Source: a virus
DNA length: 39,583 nucleotides
IMG/VR virus record: IMGVR_UViG_3300005535_000012
Location: 1 to 39,583 of that record
Strand: one strand, 5' to 3'
This document shows positions 1-39,583 of the stretch, piece by piece. Each line of letters starts with the position of its first letter. The stretch's first letter is position 1. The notes under the pieces were generated by a model, which made no database searches, was not told where the DNA came from, and saw only the letters and a program-made list of their open reading frames with translations. A program made the position numbers and the translations under genes.

Positions 1-60
1 GCCCCGCTCGAAGGCACGGGCAATGGGGCGGATGAGCGGGCGATGCGCGTAACTGATGGC
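1..60. repeat. Terminal duplication: nt 1-60 identical to nt 39524-39583 (circular closure / assembly overlap)
   Basis: Compared base by base; both copies read gccccgctcgaaggcacgggcaatggggcggatgagcgggcgatgcgcgtaactgatggc. An ORF stays in frame across the join. Confidence 0.95.
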
Positions 61-1314
61 CTCGAAGCCTGCGACTGGTCCGGCGTCTCTATCGGGAACA
101 AAGCCATCATCAAATACGCGGTGGAGTTGCTCCGAAACCGCGTCCTTCGCAATGAGGATGTGGGAACGGTGGCCGCCGATCGGGCGTTCCCGGCGAAGAA
201 CGGCTATTTCGTCTATGACCCAGAAGGCAATGGGTTTGATCTGTATGACACGGATGCAGAACGCGCCAAAGCGCACAACACGGCCATAGAAGAATGTCGG
301 CGGGCAGCAATCGACGACGGCGAATGGCCGCTCGAAGTGGACAGCATCGTATCTGGAGTCGTCACCCACAAAACCGCCGCGACTAACGTAGACGGCGATT
401 CCTGCGAGTATGCTGCCGCTCCCTCCGCAGATGCAGCGGCAGCGCCGGCAGACGAGCGGGCGGCGTTCGAGGTGTACATGCGCGCTCGGCATCCGCACGT
501 CGAATTGTACCGGCGCGACGTGCGCTCATCATCCCGTTTCGGGCAGTACTGCCGCGAGTTCGCTCAGGAAATGTGGGGGCTTTGGCAGGCCCGCGCGGCA
601 GCATCGCAGCCAGCAGCGGAGCCGATCATTCCGGCCGAACTGCATCACGACACCGCAAAGCTCGTGCGCCGGTTCGCTCGTGCGCTCGCCAACAAGCTGC
701 TGTCCGCGCAGCGCAAGTACGGCTACTCGGACAACTGGATGCGCGACGATTGGGCGGACGAGTGCCGCGCCGAGCTGATGCGCCATATCCAGAAGGGTGA
801 CCCGCGTGACGTCGCAGCCTACTGCGCGTTCTTGTGGCATCACAACGAATCGACCGCAGCGGCAGCGGGGCAAGAGGCGGTGGCGTGGGTTCGCAAGCAC
901 CCTGACACGGGCGAGCTTTCGGGAGACTGGCTCTGGAATGACGCCATAGAGCAATGCCGCAAGAATTCCGGCGTTTGGTTCCCGCTGGGCTTTCTCACCG
1001 CCGCGCCCGCGCAGGTCGTCACTCGGCAGGGGCTGACGGACGAGCAGTGGTACGACCTTGCGTCGCGGCATGCCAATGCCGAATGGAACGGCGACGGCTA
1101 TCTGGCTTCGGTCAAAGCGCTCTGCGATGACTATCGCGCCCTTCTCGCCGCTCAGCAGCCGGAGCCGCGCGCCGAGGTGACGGACGACGAGTACTGCCCG
1201 AACTGCAATTGCCAACGCGACGGGCACGCGCCATGTGTATTCGCTCAAGACGAGGCGAAGCGGCGTGCCAAGTTGGCTCCCATTGAAGCCGGCCGCGCAG
1301 GAGACGAAAAGTGA
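1..1314 (+). CDS. 3' part of junction-spanning ORF (5' part at 39134-39583); modular Ea22-like early protein, ~567 aa once the 60-nt duplicate is removed
   Basis: Position 1 is codon-aligned with 39524 (39134+390). No stop until TGA 1312-1314. Ala/Pro-rich linkers separate modules. The central segment KYGYSDNWMRDDWADECRAELMRHIQKGDPRDVAAYCAFLWHH resembles lambdoid Ea22/DUF550-type early proteins (recollection, not searched). Confidence 0.7.
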   Translation, partial: APLEGTGNGADERAMRVTDGLEACDWSGVSIGNKAIIKYAVELLRNRVLRNEDVGTVAADRAFPAKNGYFVYDPEGNGFDLYDTDAERAKAHNTAIEECRRAAIDDGEWPLEVDSIVSGVVTHKTAATNVDGDSCEYAAAPSADAAAAPADERAAFEVYMRARHPHVELYRRDVRSSSRFGQYCREFAQEMWGLWQARAAASQPAAEPIIPAELHHDTAKLVRRFARALANKLLSAQRKYGYSDNWMRDDWADECRAELMRHIQKGDPRDVAAYCAFLWHHNESTAAAAGQEAVAWVRKHPDTGELSGDWLWNDAIEQCRKNSGVWFPLGFLTAAPAQVVTRQGLTDEQWYDLASRHANAEWNGDGYLASVKALCDDYRALLAAQQPEPRAEVTDDEYCPNCNCQRDGHAPCVFAQDEAKRRAKLAPIEAGRAGDEK

Positions 1315-5155: not shown

Positions 5156-5595
5156 TGATTTTCACCTCCAGTGAGAACTTTCAGGATCCGCTCGTCGCCT
5201 TCTTTCAAGGCTTGTAGTAGAGCGCGATGGTCAAGCAACATGTCTCGCTGGGCTTCGGCAATCAGAAGAACGCCCTTGAGCGTCTTGTCTTGAGCCTCGG
5301 AGAGTTCTAGCAGCATCCCCAAGATTCGCTGCTGCATTTCAGCCATCGCAAGCAGATTTTTCACTCCATCCCATATCAGCCTGAGCAAGCGAAGTGTTTC
5401 TTCTGCGGCAACTGTAATCACAGCGCTAGCAATAGAAGCTTCGCTAGACAAACTTAAGTTCGTCCCGCCCCAATCCGGATCATATCCCCACGCATAGTGA
5501 AGAAATAGCGAACTGGCGATGAACGTAGATAGTGCTATCAAAAATATCTTCGGTGAGCGAAACCGTAGATAAATTCGATACAAGACCTTACCCAT
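5152..5595 (-). CDS. Membrane protein, 147 aa: two N-terminal TM segments plus a long helical C-terminus (DUF1003-like by eye)
   Basis: IFLIALSTFIASSLFLHYAWGYDPDWGGTNLSLSSEASIASAVITVAA followed by a Leu/Glu/Gln-rich helix. AT-richer than the genome core. The start is uncertain (ATG 5595 vs upstream GTG 5631). Confidence 0.55.
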   Translation of the reverse strand: MGKVLYRIYLRFRSPKIFLIALSTFIASSLFLHYAWGYDPDWGGTNLSLSSEASIASAVITVAAEETLRLLRLIWDGVKNLLAMAEMQQRILGMLLELSEAQDKTLKGVLLIAEAQRDMLLDHRALLQALKEGDERILKVLTGGENQ

Positions 5596-5983
5596 GCCGA
5601 AGTCCCAAGTATCCGATGACGATTTCACCAATGAACAGAATGACCATAGCCCAACTCATGCGTCGGTTAAAGCGAACTTCCTTGGATGCAACCATCGCTG
5701 AGCGCTCAGTTTCAAGATCAACAACACGCTGACCATAATGGTCAAGTCGTTCATTCAGGAACTCGTCTCTGTCGAGGCGTTCGCGTATATCGCCCCGCAA
5801 TGCAGCGATATCCTCTTTGGTGGCGATCGATTCACGCAGTTCGCTCATGAATTCATTGAGACGCTCAATATTTTCTTCAGCTTTATCAAGGCGTTGTGCG
5901 TCGTGGGCGCGCTGTCGCCGGATATCTTCGATCTCGGCTGCAAGTTTTTTATCGGCAGCATGAAGTTCTTCAAAGGTAAACAT
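5588..5983 (-). CDS. Tail-anchored coiled-coil membrane protein, 131 aa (XhlA-like architecture)
   Basis: ~100-aa charged heptad-like region, then a single C-terminal TM (MSWAMVILFIGEIVIGYLGL). GGGGA SD. AT-richer region. Confidence 0.6.
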   Translation of the reverse strand: MFTFEELHAADKKLAAEIEDIRRQRAHDAQRLDKAEENIERLNEFMSELRESIATKEDIAALRGDIRERLDRDEFLNERLDHYGQRVVDLETERSAMVASKEVRFNRRMSWAMVILFIGEIVIGYLGLRHG

Positions 5984-35533: not shown

Positions 35534-35721
35534 AAGACGACGGGCCCGATTACTGGATGGCACAACAGGCGCAAGAAGAACTGGAATGGCATGAAGAGCG
35601 GAGAAAGAATCATGAGCGAGAAGAAAACCGGATTGCAAAGGCTGCGGGAGCCCTTCCCGGAACATCAGATCAGCCTCCTTCCCAAGCCCTACAAGCGGGA
35701 TTCCCCGAAGGGGAATTGTGA
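35530..35721 (+). CDS. Possible 63-aa ORF overlapping the annealase start by ~110 nt (uncertain)
   Basis: ATGA-coupled to the upstream ORF, but it has no stop before 35721. Only the first ~27 codons are non-overlapping. Confidence 0.3.
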   Translation: MKDDGPDYWMAQQAQEELEWHEERRKNHEREENRIAKAAGALPGTSDQPPSQALQAGFPEGEL

Positions 35722-36286
35722 TGTGTGTGGTGGCTGGCATGGTCTTCCTGCCCTCCATTTGAGCTATGTCGGCCATGCAGCACTTACCGACCGGTTGCTT
35801 GAATGCGATGAGAACTGGACTTGGGAGCCGCTGGCACTTGGCCCCGATGGATTGCCATTGCTGGATCGTGACGGCGGCATGTGGATTCGCCTGACGGTCT
35901 GCGGAGTGACTCGTCTGGGGTATGGCGATGCGCAAGGAAAGACTGGGCCCGACGCCACGAAAGAACGGATCGGCGATGCACTGCGCAACGCAGCTATGCG
36001 CTTCGGTGCCGCGCTTGATCTGTGGCACAAGGGTGATCTTCACGGTCCTGAAGAAGGCGACGGCGAGGAAAATACTAAGGCAGAAACACCTCACCAAGGA
36101 TTGGCAGCTTCTTCCTTGAAAACCCATGTCGAGGCCATCAAGAAAGCTCCCGATATGAATTCCCTCAAGTCTCTTCACGCAAGCGCATACAAAGCGGCGC
36201 ATGCGGTTCGCGACACGGTCGCAGAAGAGATCATAAATGAAGCGAAAGACGCCCGAAAACTTGAACTGGAAGAGGTTACATCATGA
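35612..36286 (+). CDS. Rad52-superfamily single-strand annealing protein-like, 224 aa
   Basis: LQRLREPFPEHQISLLPK...LSYVGHAALTDRLLECDENWTWEP...KERIGDALRNAAMRFGAALDLW fits the Rad52/Sak-type annealase pattern. GGAGA SD before ATG 35612. Confidence 0.55.
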   Translation: MSEKKTGLQRLREPFPEHQISLLPKPYKRDSPKGNCDVCGGWHGLPALHLSYVGHAALTDRLLECDENWTWEPLALGPDGLPLLDRDGGMWIRLTVCGVTRLGYGDAQGKTGPDATKERIGDALRNAAMRFGAALDLWHKGDLHGPEEGDGEENTKAETPHQGLAASSLKTHVEAIKKAPDMNSLKSLHASAYKAAHAVRDTVAEEIINEAKDARKLELEEVTS

Positions 36287-36786
36287 ACGCTATCACTCTC
36301 TACGCTCTGGCTGGCGAATACAAGGACGCCGCCGACAAGCTGGCAGAAATGGAGTTGGACGATCAGACAATTTCCGATACGTTGGAATCGCTTTCCGGCG
36401 ATCTCGAAGCCAAAGCAACGAACACGATCATGCTGGTTCGCAACCTCGAAGCGACTGCCGAGCAGATCAAAGCGGCCGAGAAAGCCATGGCCGAACGCCG
36501 CAAGGCATACGAGGCGCGAGCCACCCGAATCAAGCAGTACGTCATGGACAGCATGATCTTCGCCGGCATTACCAAGATCGAATGCCCGCTGTTCAAGATC
36601 GCGATACGCGACAACCCGCCGTCAGTCGTGATCGATGACGAGAAGCAGATTCCGCAATCTTATCTGACCGATCCGCTTCCGCCGCCTCCTGCTCCCGACA
36701 AGAAGCTGATCGCGCAGGCTATCAAGGACGGCTGTGAAGTGCCGGGAGCGCACTTGGAGCGTGGCCAGCGCTTGGAGGTTAAGTGA
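36283..36786 (+). CDS. Siphovirus Gp157-family protein, 167 aa
   Basis: Coiled-coil N-terminal half, then ...ITKIECPLFKIAIRDNPPSVVIDDEKQIPQSYL, as in Gp157-like proteins that accompany phage annealases. Confidence 0.55.
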   Translation: MNAITLYALAGEYKDAADKLAEMELDDQTISDTLESLSGDLEAKATNTIMLVRNLEATAEQIKAAEKAMAERRKAYEARATRIKQYVMDSMIFAGITKIECPLFKIAIRDNPPSVVIDDEKQIPQSYLTDPLPPPPAPDKKLIAQAIKDGCEVPGAHLERGQRLEVK

Positions 36787-37127
36787 GCGACGAAGCAGAA
36801 ATCAACATCTTCAAGGCGCTCGATTTCATTCGGGACAATGCATCGGAATACGCCAAAGCCAAGGCGACGCGCGTTTATCTCGAAGAGTTCCGAAAGAGCA
36901 AGAAGGCTTTGCTGATGAAAGATGCCGAGCGTGCTGGTCACAACGCAGTCAGCGCTCAGGAGCGCGAGGCATATGCAGACGAGGGTTATCAGGATCATCT
37001 GAAATCCCTGCAAGCCGCCGTCGAATCAGAGGAAAAGCTGCGCTGGCTGATGGTCGCCGCGCAGGCAAAGATTGCCGTCTTCCAAACGTTAGAAGCAACT
37101 CGGCGACTTGAGGCAAAGGTCTTATGA
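36783..37127 (+). CDS. Hypothetical helical protein, 114 aa; its last 13 codons are supplied by the HNH-like insertion
   Basis: GTG start after GGAGG. The C-terminus TLEATRRLEAKVL is duplicated in diverged form at 37559-37597. Confidence 0.6.
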   Translation: MSDEAEINIFKALDFIRDNASEYAKAKATRVYLEEFRKSKKALLMKDAERAGHNAVSAQEREAYADEGYQDHLKSLQAAVESEEKLRWLMVAAQAKIAVFQTLEATRRLEAKVL

Positions 37128-37558
37128 AAACTCATGGGATGCGGAAAACGCAGGAATACAAGGCTTGGTCTGAGGCAAAGCAGCGATGCCATAACCCGAA
37201 AAACGCCAAATACAAGTGGTATGGCGCCAGGGGAATTTCGGTATGTGACGAATGGAAAAATGATTTCGAGGCATTTTTCTCTCATATAGGACCAAAGCCA
37301 AGCGAAAAGCACGAGCTTGACCGTATCGATAACGACAAGGGATATGAGCCCGGTAACGTCCACTGGGTGACAAAGCAAGACAACGTGAGGAATCGCAGAA
37401 ATACAGTTAAGGTTGTTGTTGGCGGGAAAGAAATGACCCTTGACGATTACGCTAAGGCTGCTGGAATTCCATATGCGACAGCGTGGGCGAGGCTAAAGAA
37501 GCACCCCCATCTGATTAATGGAGAGCCAAAGCGCAGTGGCGGAAGAAAGAGCAGTCGC
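37086..37558 (+). mobile_element. 473-nt insertion cassette: recoded 13-codon gene end plus stop plus HNH-like ORF
   Basis: Bounded by the two homologous 39-nt segments (37086-37124 and 37559-37597). AT-richer than the flanks. Its length is not a multiple of 3. Confidence 0.5.
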
Positions 37559-37600
37559 ACCTTGGAGTCCACCAGGCGCGTCGAGGCAAAGACGATTTGA
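37124..37600 (+). CDS. HNH_3-like (degenerate) endonuclease/DNA-binding protein, 158 aa
   Basis: EYKAWSEAKQRCHNPKNAKYKWYGARGISVCDEW...LDRIDNDKGYEPGNVHWVTKQDNVRNRR matches a widespread phage HNH-type family. Its C-terminal 13 aa derive from the displaced end of the upstream gene. Confidence 0.55.
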   Translation: MKTHGMRKTQEYKAWSEAKQRCHNPKNAKYKWYGARGISVCDEWKNDFEAFFSHIGPKPSEKHELDRIDNDKGYEPGNVHWVTKQDNVRNRRNTVKVVVGGKEMTLDDYAKAAGIPYATAWARLKKHPHLINGEPKRSGGRKSSRTLESTRRVEAKTI

Positions 37601-37677: not shown

Positions 37678-38309
37678 ATGAGCGTACCGACAGCCGTTTT
37701 CCTGTTCGACAAGACGGGCAACATGGCGAAGCCTTGGGCCGAAGCCGGCTACCGATGCATCTGCTACGACATCCAGCATGTCGGGCGCACCGTGCGCGAT
37801 GGGATCGTATTCCAGCAATGGGACGCACTGATCGGGCCGCCTGCGCTGCCGCCGGATTCTCTGGTTGTGTTCGGTTTCGCCTTTCCGCCTTGCACGCACC
37901 TAGCCGTCAGTGGCGCCCGCTGGTTCCAGGGTAAGGGTCTGCGCGCGCTGTCGCAGTCGATCGAGATGTTCGCCGCGGCGGCCGAATTCCTCGAGTCGCT
38001 CGGCGCGCCATACGGTATCGAGAACCCGGTGAGCGTGATTTCGTCGCACTGGCGCAAGCCAGACCACACGTTCCACCCGCACGACTATACCGCCTTCGAG
38101 CTGGCCGATCACTACACGAAGAAGACGTGCCTGTGGGTCGGCGGCGGATTCGAAATGCCCGCTCCGAATCGCGCGGAAGGTCTTGGCGCACCCGACAACC
38201 GGATCCACGCTGCCCCCCTTCCGACGACCGCGGCGACATCCGCTCGGCTACGCCGATGGGGTTCGCACGCGCCGTGTTCGAAGCAAACGCGAAGCAACTG
38301 ACCACCTGA
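37678..38309 (+). pseudogene. C5-cytosine-methyltransferase-like gene lacking a target-recognition domain; reading frame broken at a C6 run
   Basis: Motif I-like FLFDKTGNMAKPWAEAGY, motif IV-like FPPCTHLAVSG, motif VI-like IENPV. After cccccc (38213-38218) the plausible C-terminus PPSDDRGDIRSATPMGFARAVFEANAKQLTT continues in the -1 frame to 38309. Confidence 0.55.
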
Positions 38310-38373
38310 GGACCACACATGACCACCACCGACAATAGCCGCGCTGATGCGCTGACGGACCTGGAGGCGAACC

Positions 38374-39141
38374 GTGACTGAGCGAATCGTCTGTTGGTTT
38401 TCGGCCGGGGCTGCGTCCGCTGTCGCGACGAAATTGGCGATCGCCGAGAACGTGAGGGGCAAAAACCTGCCGTTGATCGTCGCCCAGTGTGGCATCGATG
38501 AAGAGCACCCGGACAACGTCCGTTTCGCCGCCGATTGTGAGCGCTGGTTTGGCGTTCCTATAACGCGGCTGACCAGCGAAAAGTTCGGGTCGTCAATCTA
38601 TGCCGTTTTCGAGAGAGAGAAATACATCGCCGGCGTGCGTGGTGCAGCTTGCACGCGTGCCTTGAAGAAGCACGTCCGAGAGGCATTCCAGCGCCATGGG
38701 GACATGCACGTGTTCGGATACTCAGCCGAGGAACAAGGCCGAGTCGACCAGTTCATCGACGGAAACAATGACGTTCTGATTTGGCCGATTCTGGTCGAAA
38801 AAGGCATAACGCACGCAGACTGTCTTGCGCTCATCGACCGAGCCGGAATCGAGATTCCGACGATGTACAAGCTCGGCTATACGCACAACAACTGCATCGG
38901 TTGCGTCAAAGGGGGCGCCGGCTACTGGAACAAAGTTCGCGTCGACTTCCCGCCTCAATTTGACCGCATGGCCAAGCTTAGTCGACGCATGGGCGTGAAG
39001 CTTGTGAAGGTCGGGGAGGAACGAGTGTTCCTCGACGAATTGCTGCCAGACGTCGGGGACTATCAAAACGAGCTGTCTATCCAGTGCGGAATCTTCTGCG
39101 AACTGGCTGAGAAAGACCTTGAAGGAGCGAATCATGGATAA
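38374..39141 (+). CDS. PP-loop ATP-pyrophosphatase, PAPS-reductase/DndC-like, 255 aa
   Basis: N-terminal PP-loop-like VCWFSAGAASAVA; C-terminal Cys pair HNNCIGCVKGGAGYW; GGAGG SD before GTG 38374. Confidence 0.6.
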   Translation: MTERIVCWFSAGAASAVATKLAIAENVRGKNLPLIVAQCGIDEEHPDNVRFAADCERWFGVPITRLTSEKFGSSIYAVFEREKYIAGVRGAACTRALKKHVREAFQRHGDMHVFGYSAEEQGRVDQFIDGNNDVLIWPILVEKGITHADCLALIDRAGIEIPTMYKLGYTHNNCIGCVKGGAGYWNKVRVDFPPQFDRMAKLSRRMGVKLVKVGEERVFLDELLPDVGDYQNELSIQCGIFCELAEKDLEGANHG

Positions 39142-39583
39142 CGCCGCATCCCCTGTCGAGCAGCACGAAGCAGCGCCGGCCGAGGGTTGTACGCCCGAAG
39201 ATGCACGGATGCTGCGGGCAGCGAATCACTCGCTTGCAGTGGAGAATGAAGCGCTTCGCCGAGCGTTGCGCCCGTTCGCTCGAATCGTATCCACCGACCG
39301 CCTTTCTTGGGCAATCGTCGAGTATTGCATTGATGGCGACCCAGAGAAGCAGACGTTTCAACGGCCGCAGATGCAGCGCGCATTCAATCGAGTGGCTGAT
39401 CTCCTTCGCGAGAACGTACCGAACGGCATTCCGTCCGACATCAATCCAGACGATCTGCCGGATTGGGTCAAGAACGGGAAACCTCCCGCACAGCCCGAAT
39501 CGCCGACGCAACCCGCACCGTCCGCCCCGCTCGAAGGCACGGGCAATGGGGCGGATGAGCGGGCGATGCGCGTAACTGATGGC
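39134..39583 (+). CDS. 5' part of the junction-spanning ORF (continues at nt 61 of the window after circularisation)
   Basis: AAGGAG SD, ATG 39134, 8-nt overlap with the upstream gene. It is open to the window end and absent from the ORF track because it has no stop. Confidence 0.7.
   Translation, partial: MDNAASPVEQHEAAPAEGCTPEDARMLRAANHSLAVENEALRRALRPFARIVSTDRLSWAIVEYCIDGDPEKQTFQRPQMQRAFNRVADLLRENVPNGIPSDINPDDLPDWVKNGKPPAQPESPTQPAPSAPLEGTGNGADERAMRVTDG
39524..39583. repeat. Second copy of the 60-nt terminal duplication
   Basis: Identical to nt 1-60. Confidence 0.95.

Follow-up and report, generated by a model that had tools for sequence, protein, structure and literature searches.

Does the adjacency of a short cytosine methylase-like gene and a PP-loop gene in this virus reflect a dedicated two-enzyme DNA-modification pathway, or did two unrelated accessory genes come to lie side by side? 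The earlier note on this DNA, made from the sequence alone, had proposed that the two products jointly introduce a covalent modification other than plain 5-methylcytosine and thereby counter restriction. We analyzed the entire stretch of 39,583 nt from the IMG/VR record IMGVR_UViG_3300005535_000012 (hereafter, the window). The contig is circular because its first and last 60 bases are identical by direct comparison, and the genome is in fact 39,523 bp long once this overlap is counted once. The methylase-like ORF, the PP-loop gene, here denoted PptA-like, and a 567-aa ORF are co-directional (Table 1), with a spacer of 72 nt between the first two and no terminator-like site found between the three on the plus strand, and they are probably co-transcribed. 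A promoter and terminator scan of the region yielded no signal above the shuffled expectation, and a DNA-level search of phage records retrieved nothing closely related to the whole region. In the window, the neighbors of the PptA-like gene are an HNH endonuclease, the methylase-like gene and the mosaic ORF. As judged by sequence comparison, the methylase-like and PptA-like genes appear to be mosaic neighbors rather than a dedicated DNA-modification module, because each belongs to a very large phage family and the pair does not travel together in relatives.

Table 1. Features of the region, in window coordinates
Feature	Coordinates	Strand	Basis or remark
Terminal direct overlap	1..60 = 39524-39583	.	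Circular assembly, direct comparison
Methylase-like ORF	37678..38301	+	207 aa from ATG 37678; direct reading, PHROG 757 member
C6 homopolymer, 1-nt deletion site	38213..38218	+	Intact relatives have C7
-1-frame segment coding the conserved family C-terminus PSDDRGDIRSATPMGFARAVFEANAKQLTT and stop	38217..38309	+	Intact homologs P0001-P0003 with identical tail
PptA-like PP-loop gene, intact, 255 aa	38374..39141	+	PDB 21fy_C and PHROG 424 matches
567-aa ORF, first 150 codons	39134..39583	+	Direct reading
567-aa ORF, remainder (417 aa and stop) across the origin	61..1314	+	Joined translation

The methylase-like ORF, with GAGGA 5 nt upstream of its ATG and alternative starts at TTG 37666 and ATG 37672, carries the motifs described in the earlier note, namely, FLFDKTGNMAKPWAEAGY, FPPCTHLAVSG and IENPV, all confirmed by direct reading. 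After frame correction (see below), the protein matches phrog_757 (E=6.8e-62, residues 2-210), and the corrected query retrieves 1,585 phage records, 1,456 of which cover at least 80% of it. PHROG 757 family homologs amount to 7,273 proteins at E<=1e-10, with lengths of about 200-230 aa, and the length of about 210 aa is normal for this family. Family members annotated as phage "DNA (cytosine) methyltransferases", such as those from Escherichia phage D6, dhillonviruses and phages of Klebsiella and Arthrobacter, are 40-50% identical to the window protein over 93-99% of its length and resemble it in size and in the lack of a separate target-recognition domain; the window copy differs from the rest of the family in that a frameshift takes away the conserved C-terminus. 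In the literature searched, the activity and specificity of PHROG 757 methylases are given by annotation, with no experiment found, and for short phage methylase genes only their abundance is mentioned.

In a set of 113 relatives from the family with 35-53% identity to the methylase query, D33 and E117 of the ENP motif never vary, and C74 of the PC motif, N118 and P119 are each retained in 90% or more of the sequences; the motifs thus exceed chance. In the C-terminus of the family, R187, R191, S192, P195, G197, A201 and N206 are invariant, and R191, T194, P195, G197, F198 and A201 are conserved in at least 90% of divergent members. The protein has no match to PF00145, nor to any Pfam family at E<=0.1, and PF00145 is reached, weakly, by 2 of the 113 divergent relatives (best E=0.0039). 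Searches of PDB sequences with the protein and its profile gave chance-level matches, none of them to a methyltransferase. Using hhalign, residues 50-140 were placed on M.HhaI 59-153 (E=0.0068), and PPC74 and IE117NP came into register with the PCQ and ENV of M.HhaI in two alignments (E=0.17 and 0.0068). Thus, the catalytic Pro-Cys of motif IV and the Glu-Asn-Val-type motif VI retain their canonical order and spacing.

The AF2 model (pLDDT 87.5) adopts a Rossmann-type methyltransferase fold and consists of one continuous set of elements, with no second domain and about 20 residues (158-176) between the last strand and the C-terminal helices, so that the target-recognition domain expected between motifs VIII and IX is absent; the suggestion that the ORF is too short for a canonical domain of this kind holds. 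Foldseek matched the model to generic Rossmann methyltransferases or reductases with low TM, ranking generic SAM methyltransferases (FtsJ) above DNMT3A (TM about 0.3-0.4), which would speak for the fold class only. The protein shares with canonical C5 methyltransferases (PF00145, e.g. M.HhaI) the acidic residue after strand 2, the D at motif III, Cys74 and Glu117, in the same order and spacing, and unlike these enzymes, it lacks both the target-recognition domain and the glycine-rich FxGxG loop. The methylase-like designation holds at the level of the fold and of the Cys and Glu motifs, which are conserved in the order seen in M.HhaI, whereas the PF00145 match is missing and the C-terminus is frameshifted.

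The frameshift maps to a run of cytosines that counts six in the window and seven in the intact relatives, one nucleotide having been lost. Where an intact relative (locus L056, 84% identical protein) reads GCTGCCCCCCCATCC, the window reads GCTGCCCCCCTTCC. As a result, the last 27 residues of the ORF, after about residue 180, and with them the conserved 30 C-terminal residues of the family, are out of frame. The family tail PSDDRGDIRSATPMGFARAVFEANAKQLTT sits in the -1 frame after the C6 run and ends at 38309, where the ORF as read does not reach it; the corrected tail agrees with PHROG 757 through residue 210 and is identical in three intact homologs (P0001-P0003). Sequencing error was ruled out as the cause because the same C6 allele is present in four independent JGI metagenome contigs (L141-L144). 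This lineage has lost one C of the C7 run, leaving a protein that ends in 27 unrelated residues without the conserved C-terminal helix. The intact C-terminal motif that completes the cofactor pocket is not present in the reading frame, and the window protein is most likely inactive.

Alternatively, the gene might not be dead, with the C-run acting as a switch that controls the yield of full-length methylase through phase variation or -1 slippage. Two lineages have independently lost a single nucleotide in or beside this C-run: one loss is the C6 allele of the window and the other an allele of a Burkholderia cenocepacia prophage (P0013/L059) that is seen on 37 contigs, and this second loss is a hint that the site may be mutable or switchable and not just decaying. 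Moreover, no other damage is seen in the ORF before the shift, and beyond it the -1 frame keeps perfect conservation and stays open as far as the normal stop of the family. Low-level full-length methylase could still be produced by -1 slippage on the C-run. However, C6 or C7 is short for efficient slipped-strand switching, the site, read directly, does not conform to the canonical slippery heptamer X XXY YYZ, and the four metagenome copies show no length polymorphism. We consider such a switch unlikely.

The PptA-like ORF starts with GTG preceded by GGAGG and contains, as previously described, WFSAGAASAV and NNCIGC. Its product is similar over residues 3-244 to PDB 21fy_C, "PptA" (E=1.1e-70), which is the protein of Vibrio phage vB_VhaP_VH-5 (48.5% identity by tblastn), and to phrog_424, "phosphoadenosine phosphosulfate reductase" (E=1.3e-44). 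Against Pfam PF01507, it scores 14.5 bits (E=0.036), below the cut-off of 22.5; the PAPS-reductase assignment is thus weak by Pfam and rests on PHROG 424 and the fold. The AF2 model (pLDDT 89.6, with a flexible C-terminal tail) displays the PAPS-reductase-type alpha/beta ATP-pyrophosphatase fold, as the earlier note expected, with Foldseek matches to the [4Fe-4S] LarE, APS/PAPS reductases and TtuA; for 2goy, 6vpu, 1sur and 2oq2, the probability is 1.0 at TM 0.43-0.52. The SxGAAS loop (residues 10-15) and C55, C93, C174, C177 (NNCIGC), C238 and C242 are invariant in 52 sequences and kept in the window protein. Homologs of about 250 aa number about 4,300, from many bacterial phyla and phage types, and the window gene is one more intact member of this family, with nothing special beyond that. 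The window protein and VH-5 PptA are alike in size, in the SxGAxS loop, NNC[IV]GC and the C-terminal Cys motif, and in being encoded by a stand-alone phage gene; VH-5 differs from the window phage in being a T7-like lytic Vibrio phage with pptA located after the phage RNA polymerase. No paper describing the activity of PptA was found in the literature searched, so the name carries no function here. Other uses of "PptA" in the literature refer to unrelated proteins or acronyms.

In viromes, the PptA family is usually annotated as a CysH-type auxiliary metabolic gene. APS/PAPS reductases combine Fe-S cysteines with an ECGLH tail. If this annotation were correct, the window gene would encode a PAPS/APS reductase that boosts assimilatory sulfate reduction of the host during infection, and phage PAPS reductase counts as a genuine auxiliary metabolic gene in the virome literature. 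The category assigned to PHROG 424 is "moron, auxiliary metabolic gene", the Foldseek matches to APS/PAPS reductases given above point the same way, and the window protein resembles CysH and APS reductase in its fold, its CxxC pair and a Cys-Gly motif, QCGIFC, on the flexible C-terminal tail that recalls the reductase cysteines and tail. Nevertheless, this role is rather improbable. The protein departs from CysH and APS reductase in its PF01507 score under the gathering threshold and in its phage early-region context, no CysH model of NCBIfam is matched (the one sub-threshold match there is to a model called "hypothetical protein" and is uninformative), and the PptA profile could not be meaningfully aligned by hhalign with E. 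coli CysH, for which a single sequence served as the template. The caveat that the gene could be an ordinary CysH ortholog is thereby answered in the negative. Furthermore, members of the family lie in early, replication or anti-defense regions, among methylases, Mom, a Tad2-like gene, NinB and recombinases, and the sole genetic evidence on a phage PAPS-reductase domain concerns defense evasion.

DndC, SspD and BrxP share with the window protein the PAPS-reductase-type PP-loop fold and conserved cysteines, but the window protein differs from them in its much smaller size and in lacking a fused DNA-binding module. PADLOC detected no DndC or BrxP model, and a weak, partial match to SspD (E=1.4e-7, residues 21-204). 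The PptA-like protein is thus probably not CysH, DndC or BrxP. A phage-encoded domain of the PAPS-reductase fold that is joined to a DNA methylase and has been implicated in evading host defense occurs in p0018 of Vibrio crassostreae phage 44E38.1, a fusion of a PAPS-reductase domain with Dam that belongs to an anti-Dnd determinant (Piel et al., bioRxiv 10.1101/2021.05.05.442762). There, the domains are fused rather than encoded by adjacent genes, and the methylase partner is an N6-adenine enzyme; moreover, the anti-Dnd experiments swapped two genes at once and so do not single out the contribution of the PAPS domain (bioRxiv 10.1101/2021.05.05.442762). The fused domain was not among the tblastn matches of the window protein and is either a more distant subfamily or absent from the searched collection. 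Because this fusion is genetically tied to Dnd escape, a looser functional link may nonetheless exist between the PAPS-reductase fold and base-modifying enzymes. Vibrio phages 236O40-1 and 168E36-1 were considered as carriers of the fusion and rejected, as stand-alone genes of about 290 aa were found in them, and the PptA family is therefore not linked to the anti-Dnd experiment through these phages. The anti-Dnd protein JSS1_004 was set aside as a parallel, being a kinase/shutoff protein.

Co-occurrence of the methylase-like and PP-loop genes in other phages, which the earlier note proposed to check and whose absence it had named as grounds for rejecting its own proposal, is rare. Of 135 PptA-family loci, 5 contain a PHROG 757-type methylase no more than 6 kb from the PptA gene, as do 3 of the 55 viral loci. 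Among the nearest relatives of either gene, the other is missing: tblastn found no PptA gene in the four loci with the closest methylase relatives (L056-L059); at the locus with the 95% identical PptA (L001), the methylase position is occupied by a phrog_887 queuine tRNA-ribosyltransferase (DpdA-like) gene; upstream of the 79% identical PptA (L002), there is neither a methylase nor a DpdA-like gene; and none of the 12 annotated neighbors of the solved ortholog in VH-5 is a methylase. In a survey of 110 non-redundant PptA-family loci, for which ORF calling was crude and each set was limited to its first 25 Pfam families, no conserved partner of PptA emerged among the Pfam families listed. Pfam-detectable DNA-modification genes, among the families listed, occupy position -1 in 8 of 100 cases, with six different families represented, and position +1 in at least 1 of 102, and C5 methylases alone account for 4 of 150 at the +/-3 control positions. 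The DNA-modification genes found beside PptA are of mixed kinds and not clearly more common than at control positions. Roughly one-tenth of PptA loci have a DNA-modifying gene directly upstream, variously a C5, N6/N4 or Dam methylase, a small methylase, Mom or a DpdA-like gene. Across the 110 loci, no DndA/D/E, SspA/B/C or type 4 BREX partner recurs among the Pfam families listed, the sole exception being one +1 neighbor with an Aminotran_5 domain, which is probably a host gene.

The explanation we favor, at a probability of about 0.72, is that these are functionally independent accessory genes in a mosaic early region, namely, a frameshifted methylase, an intact stand-alone PptA and a mosaic ORF, brought together by cassette shuffling. 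Both the methylase-like and the PptA-like genes are ordinary mosaic cargo from known phage families. As judged from fold and conservation, the PptA-like protein would be an adenylating enzyme of the sulfur-transfer type in which cysteines ligate an Fe-S or metal site and the flexible tail also bears Cys, and it would work without a dedicated phage partner, using host factors; by analogy, its role would most likely be to shield phage nucleic acid from host defense. The adjacency with the methylase would then reflect shuffling of cassettes in a variable region and not a conserved two-enzyme pathway. In the coupled alternative, the methylase-like protein flips and covalently activates a base, and the PP-loop protein adenylates it and transfers sulfur or another group, conferring anti-restriction. 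The arrangement of the genes, adjacent and co-directional with a short spacer and no intervening plus-strand terminator-like site, fits such a pathway, as do the occasional positions of PptA genes next to DNA-modifying genes and the connection of the PAPS-domain::Dam fusion with anti-Dnd activity. All the same, this alternative is very improbable given the 5 of 135 loci with the pair, the nearest relatives of either gene that lack the other, the reproducible frameshift in the window methylase and the solved ortholog that stands alone in a T7-like phage. In addition, the upstream partners elsewhere are chemically unrelated (N6-adenine, N4/C5-cytosine, Mom, transglycosylase), and a single coupled mechanism cannot explain them. 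The proposal of a functional pair producing a new DNA modification is accordingly not supported, since the genes do not co-occur, the methylase is frameshifted, and its short length is typical of the family and nothing special.

Candidacy for anti-restriction or DNA modification does remain reasonable for phage PAPS-reductase-like genes, although not as a pair, and it is already in the literature, where PptA-type genes are suspected by others to be anti-defense or DNA-modification enzymes. More specifically, the family might consist of stand-alone enzymes that add a sulfur-containing or adenylation-dependent mark to phage DNA or host nucleic acid and so evade defense, perhaps forming, along with methylases, Mom and DpdA-like genes, a "DNA disguise" cassette in which PptA supplies a second, chemically distinct layer. 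We regard this as a tentative and fairly unlikely extension; if true, the window gene would represent an uncharacterized phage DNA-modification chemistry, independent of the adjacent methylase. The value of the present analysis is that of negative evidence: the pairing is a mosaic accident with one partner broken here, and pursuing it as a hypermodification pathway of two enzymes is not worthwhile. What interest remains attaches to the PptA family, which is very widespread and routinely annotated as an auxiliary gene of sulfur metabolism in viromes, such that knowledge of its role would correct or confirm a very common annotation.

The third gene of the region spans the origin. Its ATG at 39134 overlaps the PptA-like stop by 8 nt (ATGGATAA), in agreement with the overlap noted previously, and the mosaic ORF would be translationally coupled to the PptA-like gene. 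The joined, origin-wrapped translation (39134..39583 plus 61..1314) is exactly 567 aa, as had been stated. The "Ea22-like" label given to this ORF found no confirmation. The residues encoded by 39134..39583 have no Pfam or PHROG match, and the remainder matches only PHROGs of unknown function. Separate pieces alone are held in common with hypothetical phage proteins, residues 188-267 being 56% identical to Bcep781 gp59 and residues 344-481 69% identical to BcepNY3 gp60, so that the ORF appears to be a mosaic of small conserved pieces.

The two genes that the earlier note had joined into an anti-restriction, two-enzyme DNA-modification module are present as described, and its coordinates, motifs, spacing and 567-aa figure for the third ORF are correct by direct reading and by translation across the joined circular sequence. 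The finding holds but is an ordinary one: a pair of unrelated cargo genes, each from a very large phage family and one of them frameshifted, with a mosaic ORF behind them. The first and last 60 bp form an exact repeat (positions 1-60 equal 39524-39583 by direct comparison), which identifies the window as a complete genome, circularly assembled or permuted, that measures 39,523 bp and has a G+C content of 54.5%. The minus strand carries structural genes, and an early block on the plus strand extends from ~31 kb through the origin, so that the 567-aa ORF spans the circular junction. A scan of the plus strand found no terminator-like site between the methylase-like, PP-loop and 567-aa ORFs.

Features of the early block around the methylase-like and PP-loop genes (window coordinates)
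Feature	Position	Strand	Remarks
Pentapeptide-repeat protein, 252 aa	33595-34353	+	early block; PF00805, E = 2e-47; C-terminal DUF5758
Single-strand annealing protein	35591-36286	+	early block
Gp157-family gene	36283-36786	+	early block
HNH endonuclease	37124-37600	+	phrog_3377, E = 1.6e-49
Methylase-like ORF	37678-38301	+	GAGGA 5 nt upstream
Poly-C tract	38213-38218		C6; within methylase-like ORF
Spacer, 72 nt	38302-38373		between methylase-like and PP-loop ORFs
PP-loop ORF, 255 aa	38374-39141	+	GTG start, GGAGG upstream
567-aa ORF	39134-39583 + 61-1314	+	ATG overlaps PP-loop ORF stop by 8 nt; resumes at base 61, stop at 1314, exactly 567 aa

Co-occurrence in relatives had been named beforehand as a check on the module, and the two genes do not co-occur. 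Among 135 fetched loci with relatives of the PP-loop gene (55 viral and 80 genomic), only five (L033, L034, L052, L064 and L078) carry a PHROG 757 methylase, the short phage family of the methylase-like gene, within 6 kb of the PptA gene, as the PP-loop gene is called below. The closest relatives of each gene lack the other. In the closest PptA relative (L001, IMG/VR UViG_2912464834_000002; 95% identity), where the spacer and the start of the downstream ORF are unchanged, the methylase position (5182-5937) holds a DpdA-like gene of 251 aa, phrog_887 “queuine tRNA-ribosyltransferase” (E = 2.8e-73), a cassette swap in which one PptA gene is preceded by either of two kinds of DNA-modifying gene; another relative (L002, PptA 79% identical) has neither. 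No PptA gene was found by tblastn in the four loci with the closest methylase relatives; such loci include a 39.6-kb Logan contig and B. gladioli and B. cenocepacia prophages, with N6/N4 methylase, canonical C5 methylase or YqaJ-type genes as neighbours.

Neighbour clustering of the 55 viral loci and the window likewise yielded no conserved PptA partner, the largest cluster being a DnaB-like helicase (8 loci). In a rough census of 110 non-redundant PptA loci, based on a Pfam scan and simple ORF calling, the families listed at position −1 (100 genes) included C5 methylase (2), Methyltransf_11-type (2), and N6_N4, Dam, Mom and Methyltransf_24 (1 each); the first 25 families listed at +1 (102 genes) included one N6_N4, and those listed at the control positions ±3 (150 genes) included four C5 methylases. 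Modification genes of many unrelated chemistries are scattered through these variable early regions, and PptA is tied specifically to none. The two-enzyme module is therefore not supported, and independent functions for the methylase-like and PptA-like genes are the best-supported reading. Directly downstream of PptA, single loci carry a cysteine-desulfurase-type (Aminotran_5) gene, an MnmA-type tRNA 2-thiouridylase gene or a Tad2-like anti-Thoeris gene, of which the first two may be host genes at prophage borders.

The methylase-like protein is unrecognised by Pfam and NCBIfam, and its ORF as read ends in an unnatural-looking …AAPLPTTAATSARLRRWGSHAPCSKQTRSN, while the −1 frame there encodes PSDDRGDIRSATPMGFARAVFEANAKQLTT. 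When both frames are joined at the poly-C tract, the resulting 212-aa protein matches PHROG 757 “DNA methyltransferase” over residues 2-210 (E = 6.8e-62), aligns over its full length with proteins annotated as methylases in 1,585 phage records, and has more than 7,000 homologues of 200-230 aa (2,781 clusters at 50% identity); the tail of the intact relatives P0001-P0003 (82-86% identity) is exactly the frame-corrected one. At the DNA level, the window has C6 where the intact relative L056 (84% identical) has C7. A sequencing slip was ruled out as the cause, since four independent JGI metagenome contigs carrying the identical PP-loop gene share the C6 allele, which is thus a real allele of this lineage. 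The out-of-frame segment holds R191, T194, P195, G197, F198 and A201, positions at which the family varies little or not at all, and the protein as encoded is probably inactive. A prophage allele of B. cenocepacia (P0013, 37 contigs; around 5530-5545 in locus L059) has independently lost 1 nt immediately after its C7 run, and the tract, with independent losses in two lineages, could be a hot spot for mutation or work as an on/off switch.

The C5-methylase likeness of this short family is partly shown. Across 113 members that share only 35-53% identity with the query, D33 and E117 never vary, and conservation reaches at least 90% at C74 (of the Pro-Cys pair), N118 and P119. In a profile-sequence alignment to an approximate M.HhaI sequence, residues 50-140 fall on M.HhaI 59-153 (E = 0.0068), with D on motif III, PC on PCQ and ENP on ENV; a shallower profile gave E = 0.17 against this sequence, and PF00145 matched weakly in two of the 113 relatives. 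In the confident AF2 model (pLDDT 87.5) the Rossmann-type elements form a single uninterrupted set, and the loop that directly follows the PC motif is disordered; Foldseek retrieved generic SAM methyltransferases only (FtsJ, E = 6e-4; DNMT3A ranked 15th), with TM ~0.3-0.4. A canonical target-recognition domain would, as proposed, not fit into the protein, but nor would it anywhere else in the family, so that the short length is no peculiarity of this phage. Some members (P0266, P0284 and others) have a fused D12-class N6-adenine methylase domain or are broken up by elements of the intein, HNH or LAGLIDADG type.

The PP-loop protein is not an ordinary CysH: Pfam PAPS_reduct is sub-threshold (14.5 against 22.5 bits) and NCBIfam gave no CysH match. 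In PADLOC the match to SspD is weak (E = 1.4e-7), and neither DndC nor BrxP was matched; BrxP/SspD-type enzymes, unlike this protein, have extra DNA-binding or ferredoxin-like modules. It belongs instead with the stand-alone PAPS-reductase-like phage family PHROG 424 (E = 1.3e-44), and residues 3-244 match PDB chain 21fy_C, “PptA” (E = 1.1e-70). This entry, absent from a Foldseek library ending April 2026, is presumably recent, and no paper describing it was found in the literature searched. Its chain and a hypothetical protein of the T7-like Vibrio phage vB_VhaP_VH-5 have the same sequence (100% identity); in this phage the PptA gene follows the RNA polymerase gene and no methylase is annotated among the neighbours.

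The family has ~4,300 detectable members of ~250 aa in prophage-like contexts in Proteobacteria, Bacteroidota, Verrucomicrobiota, Bacillota, Planctomycetota, candidate phyla and archaeal MAGs, with invariant W8-F-S-x-G-A-A-S15, E44-H-x-D-N48 and cysteines 55, 93, 174, 177, 238 and 242. The best Foldseek matches of the AF2 model (pLDDT 89.6; low-confidence tail from residue 240) are [4Fe-4S] LarE, APS and PAPS reductases, TtuA and NcsA. The protein is inferred to be an ATP-pyrophosphatase that adenylates a substrate oxygen, with sulfur transfer via a Cys-ligated cluster and the Cys-bearing mobile tail, and a stand-alone PP-loop enzyme of the sulfur-transfer type is the best-supported reading.

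An anti-restriction or DNA-modification role for phage PAPS-reductase-like genes is not a new idea: a two-gene cassette that includes a PAPS-reductase-domain::Dam fusion lets Vibrio phages escape a host Dnd system (Le Roux group, bioRxiv 10.1101/2021.05.05.442762), and phage PAPS reductases are among the candidate anti-defence genes named in a 2026 survey of anti-CRISPR-associated operons. The same annotation is treated as a sulfur-metabolism auxiliary gene in virome studies. The PAPS-reductase domain of the Vibrio fusion is absent from the tblastn matches of the window's protein. The role of PptA would probably be defence evasion.

The 567-aa ORF is a patchwork, with residues 344-481 69% identical to Burkholderia phage BcepNY3 gp60 and residues 188-267 56% identical to Bcep781 gp59; the ~70-aa module at residues 344-415 is met again in hypothetical proteins (Klebsiella, Erwinia, cyanophage), and none of the annotations seen names Ea22. 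The HNH endonuclease gene directly before the methylase-like gene is possibly a mobile element that contributed to local cassette shuffling. The pentapeptide-repeat protein of the same early block is a possible anti-defence candidate, because such proteins can mimic DNA.
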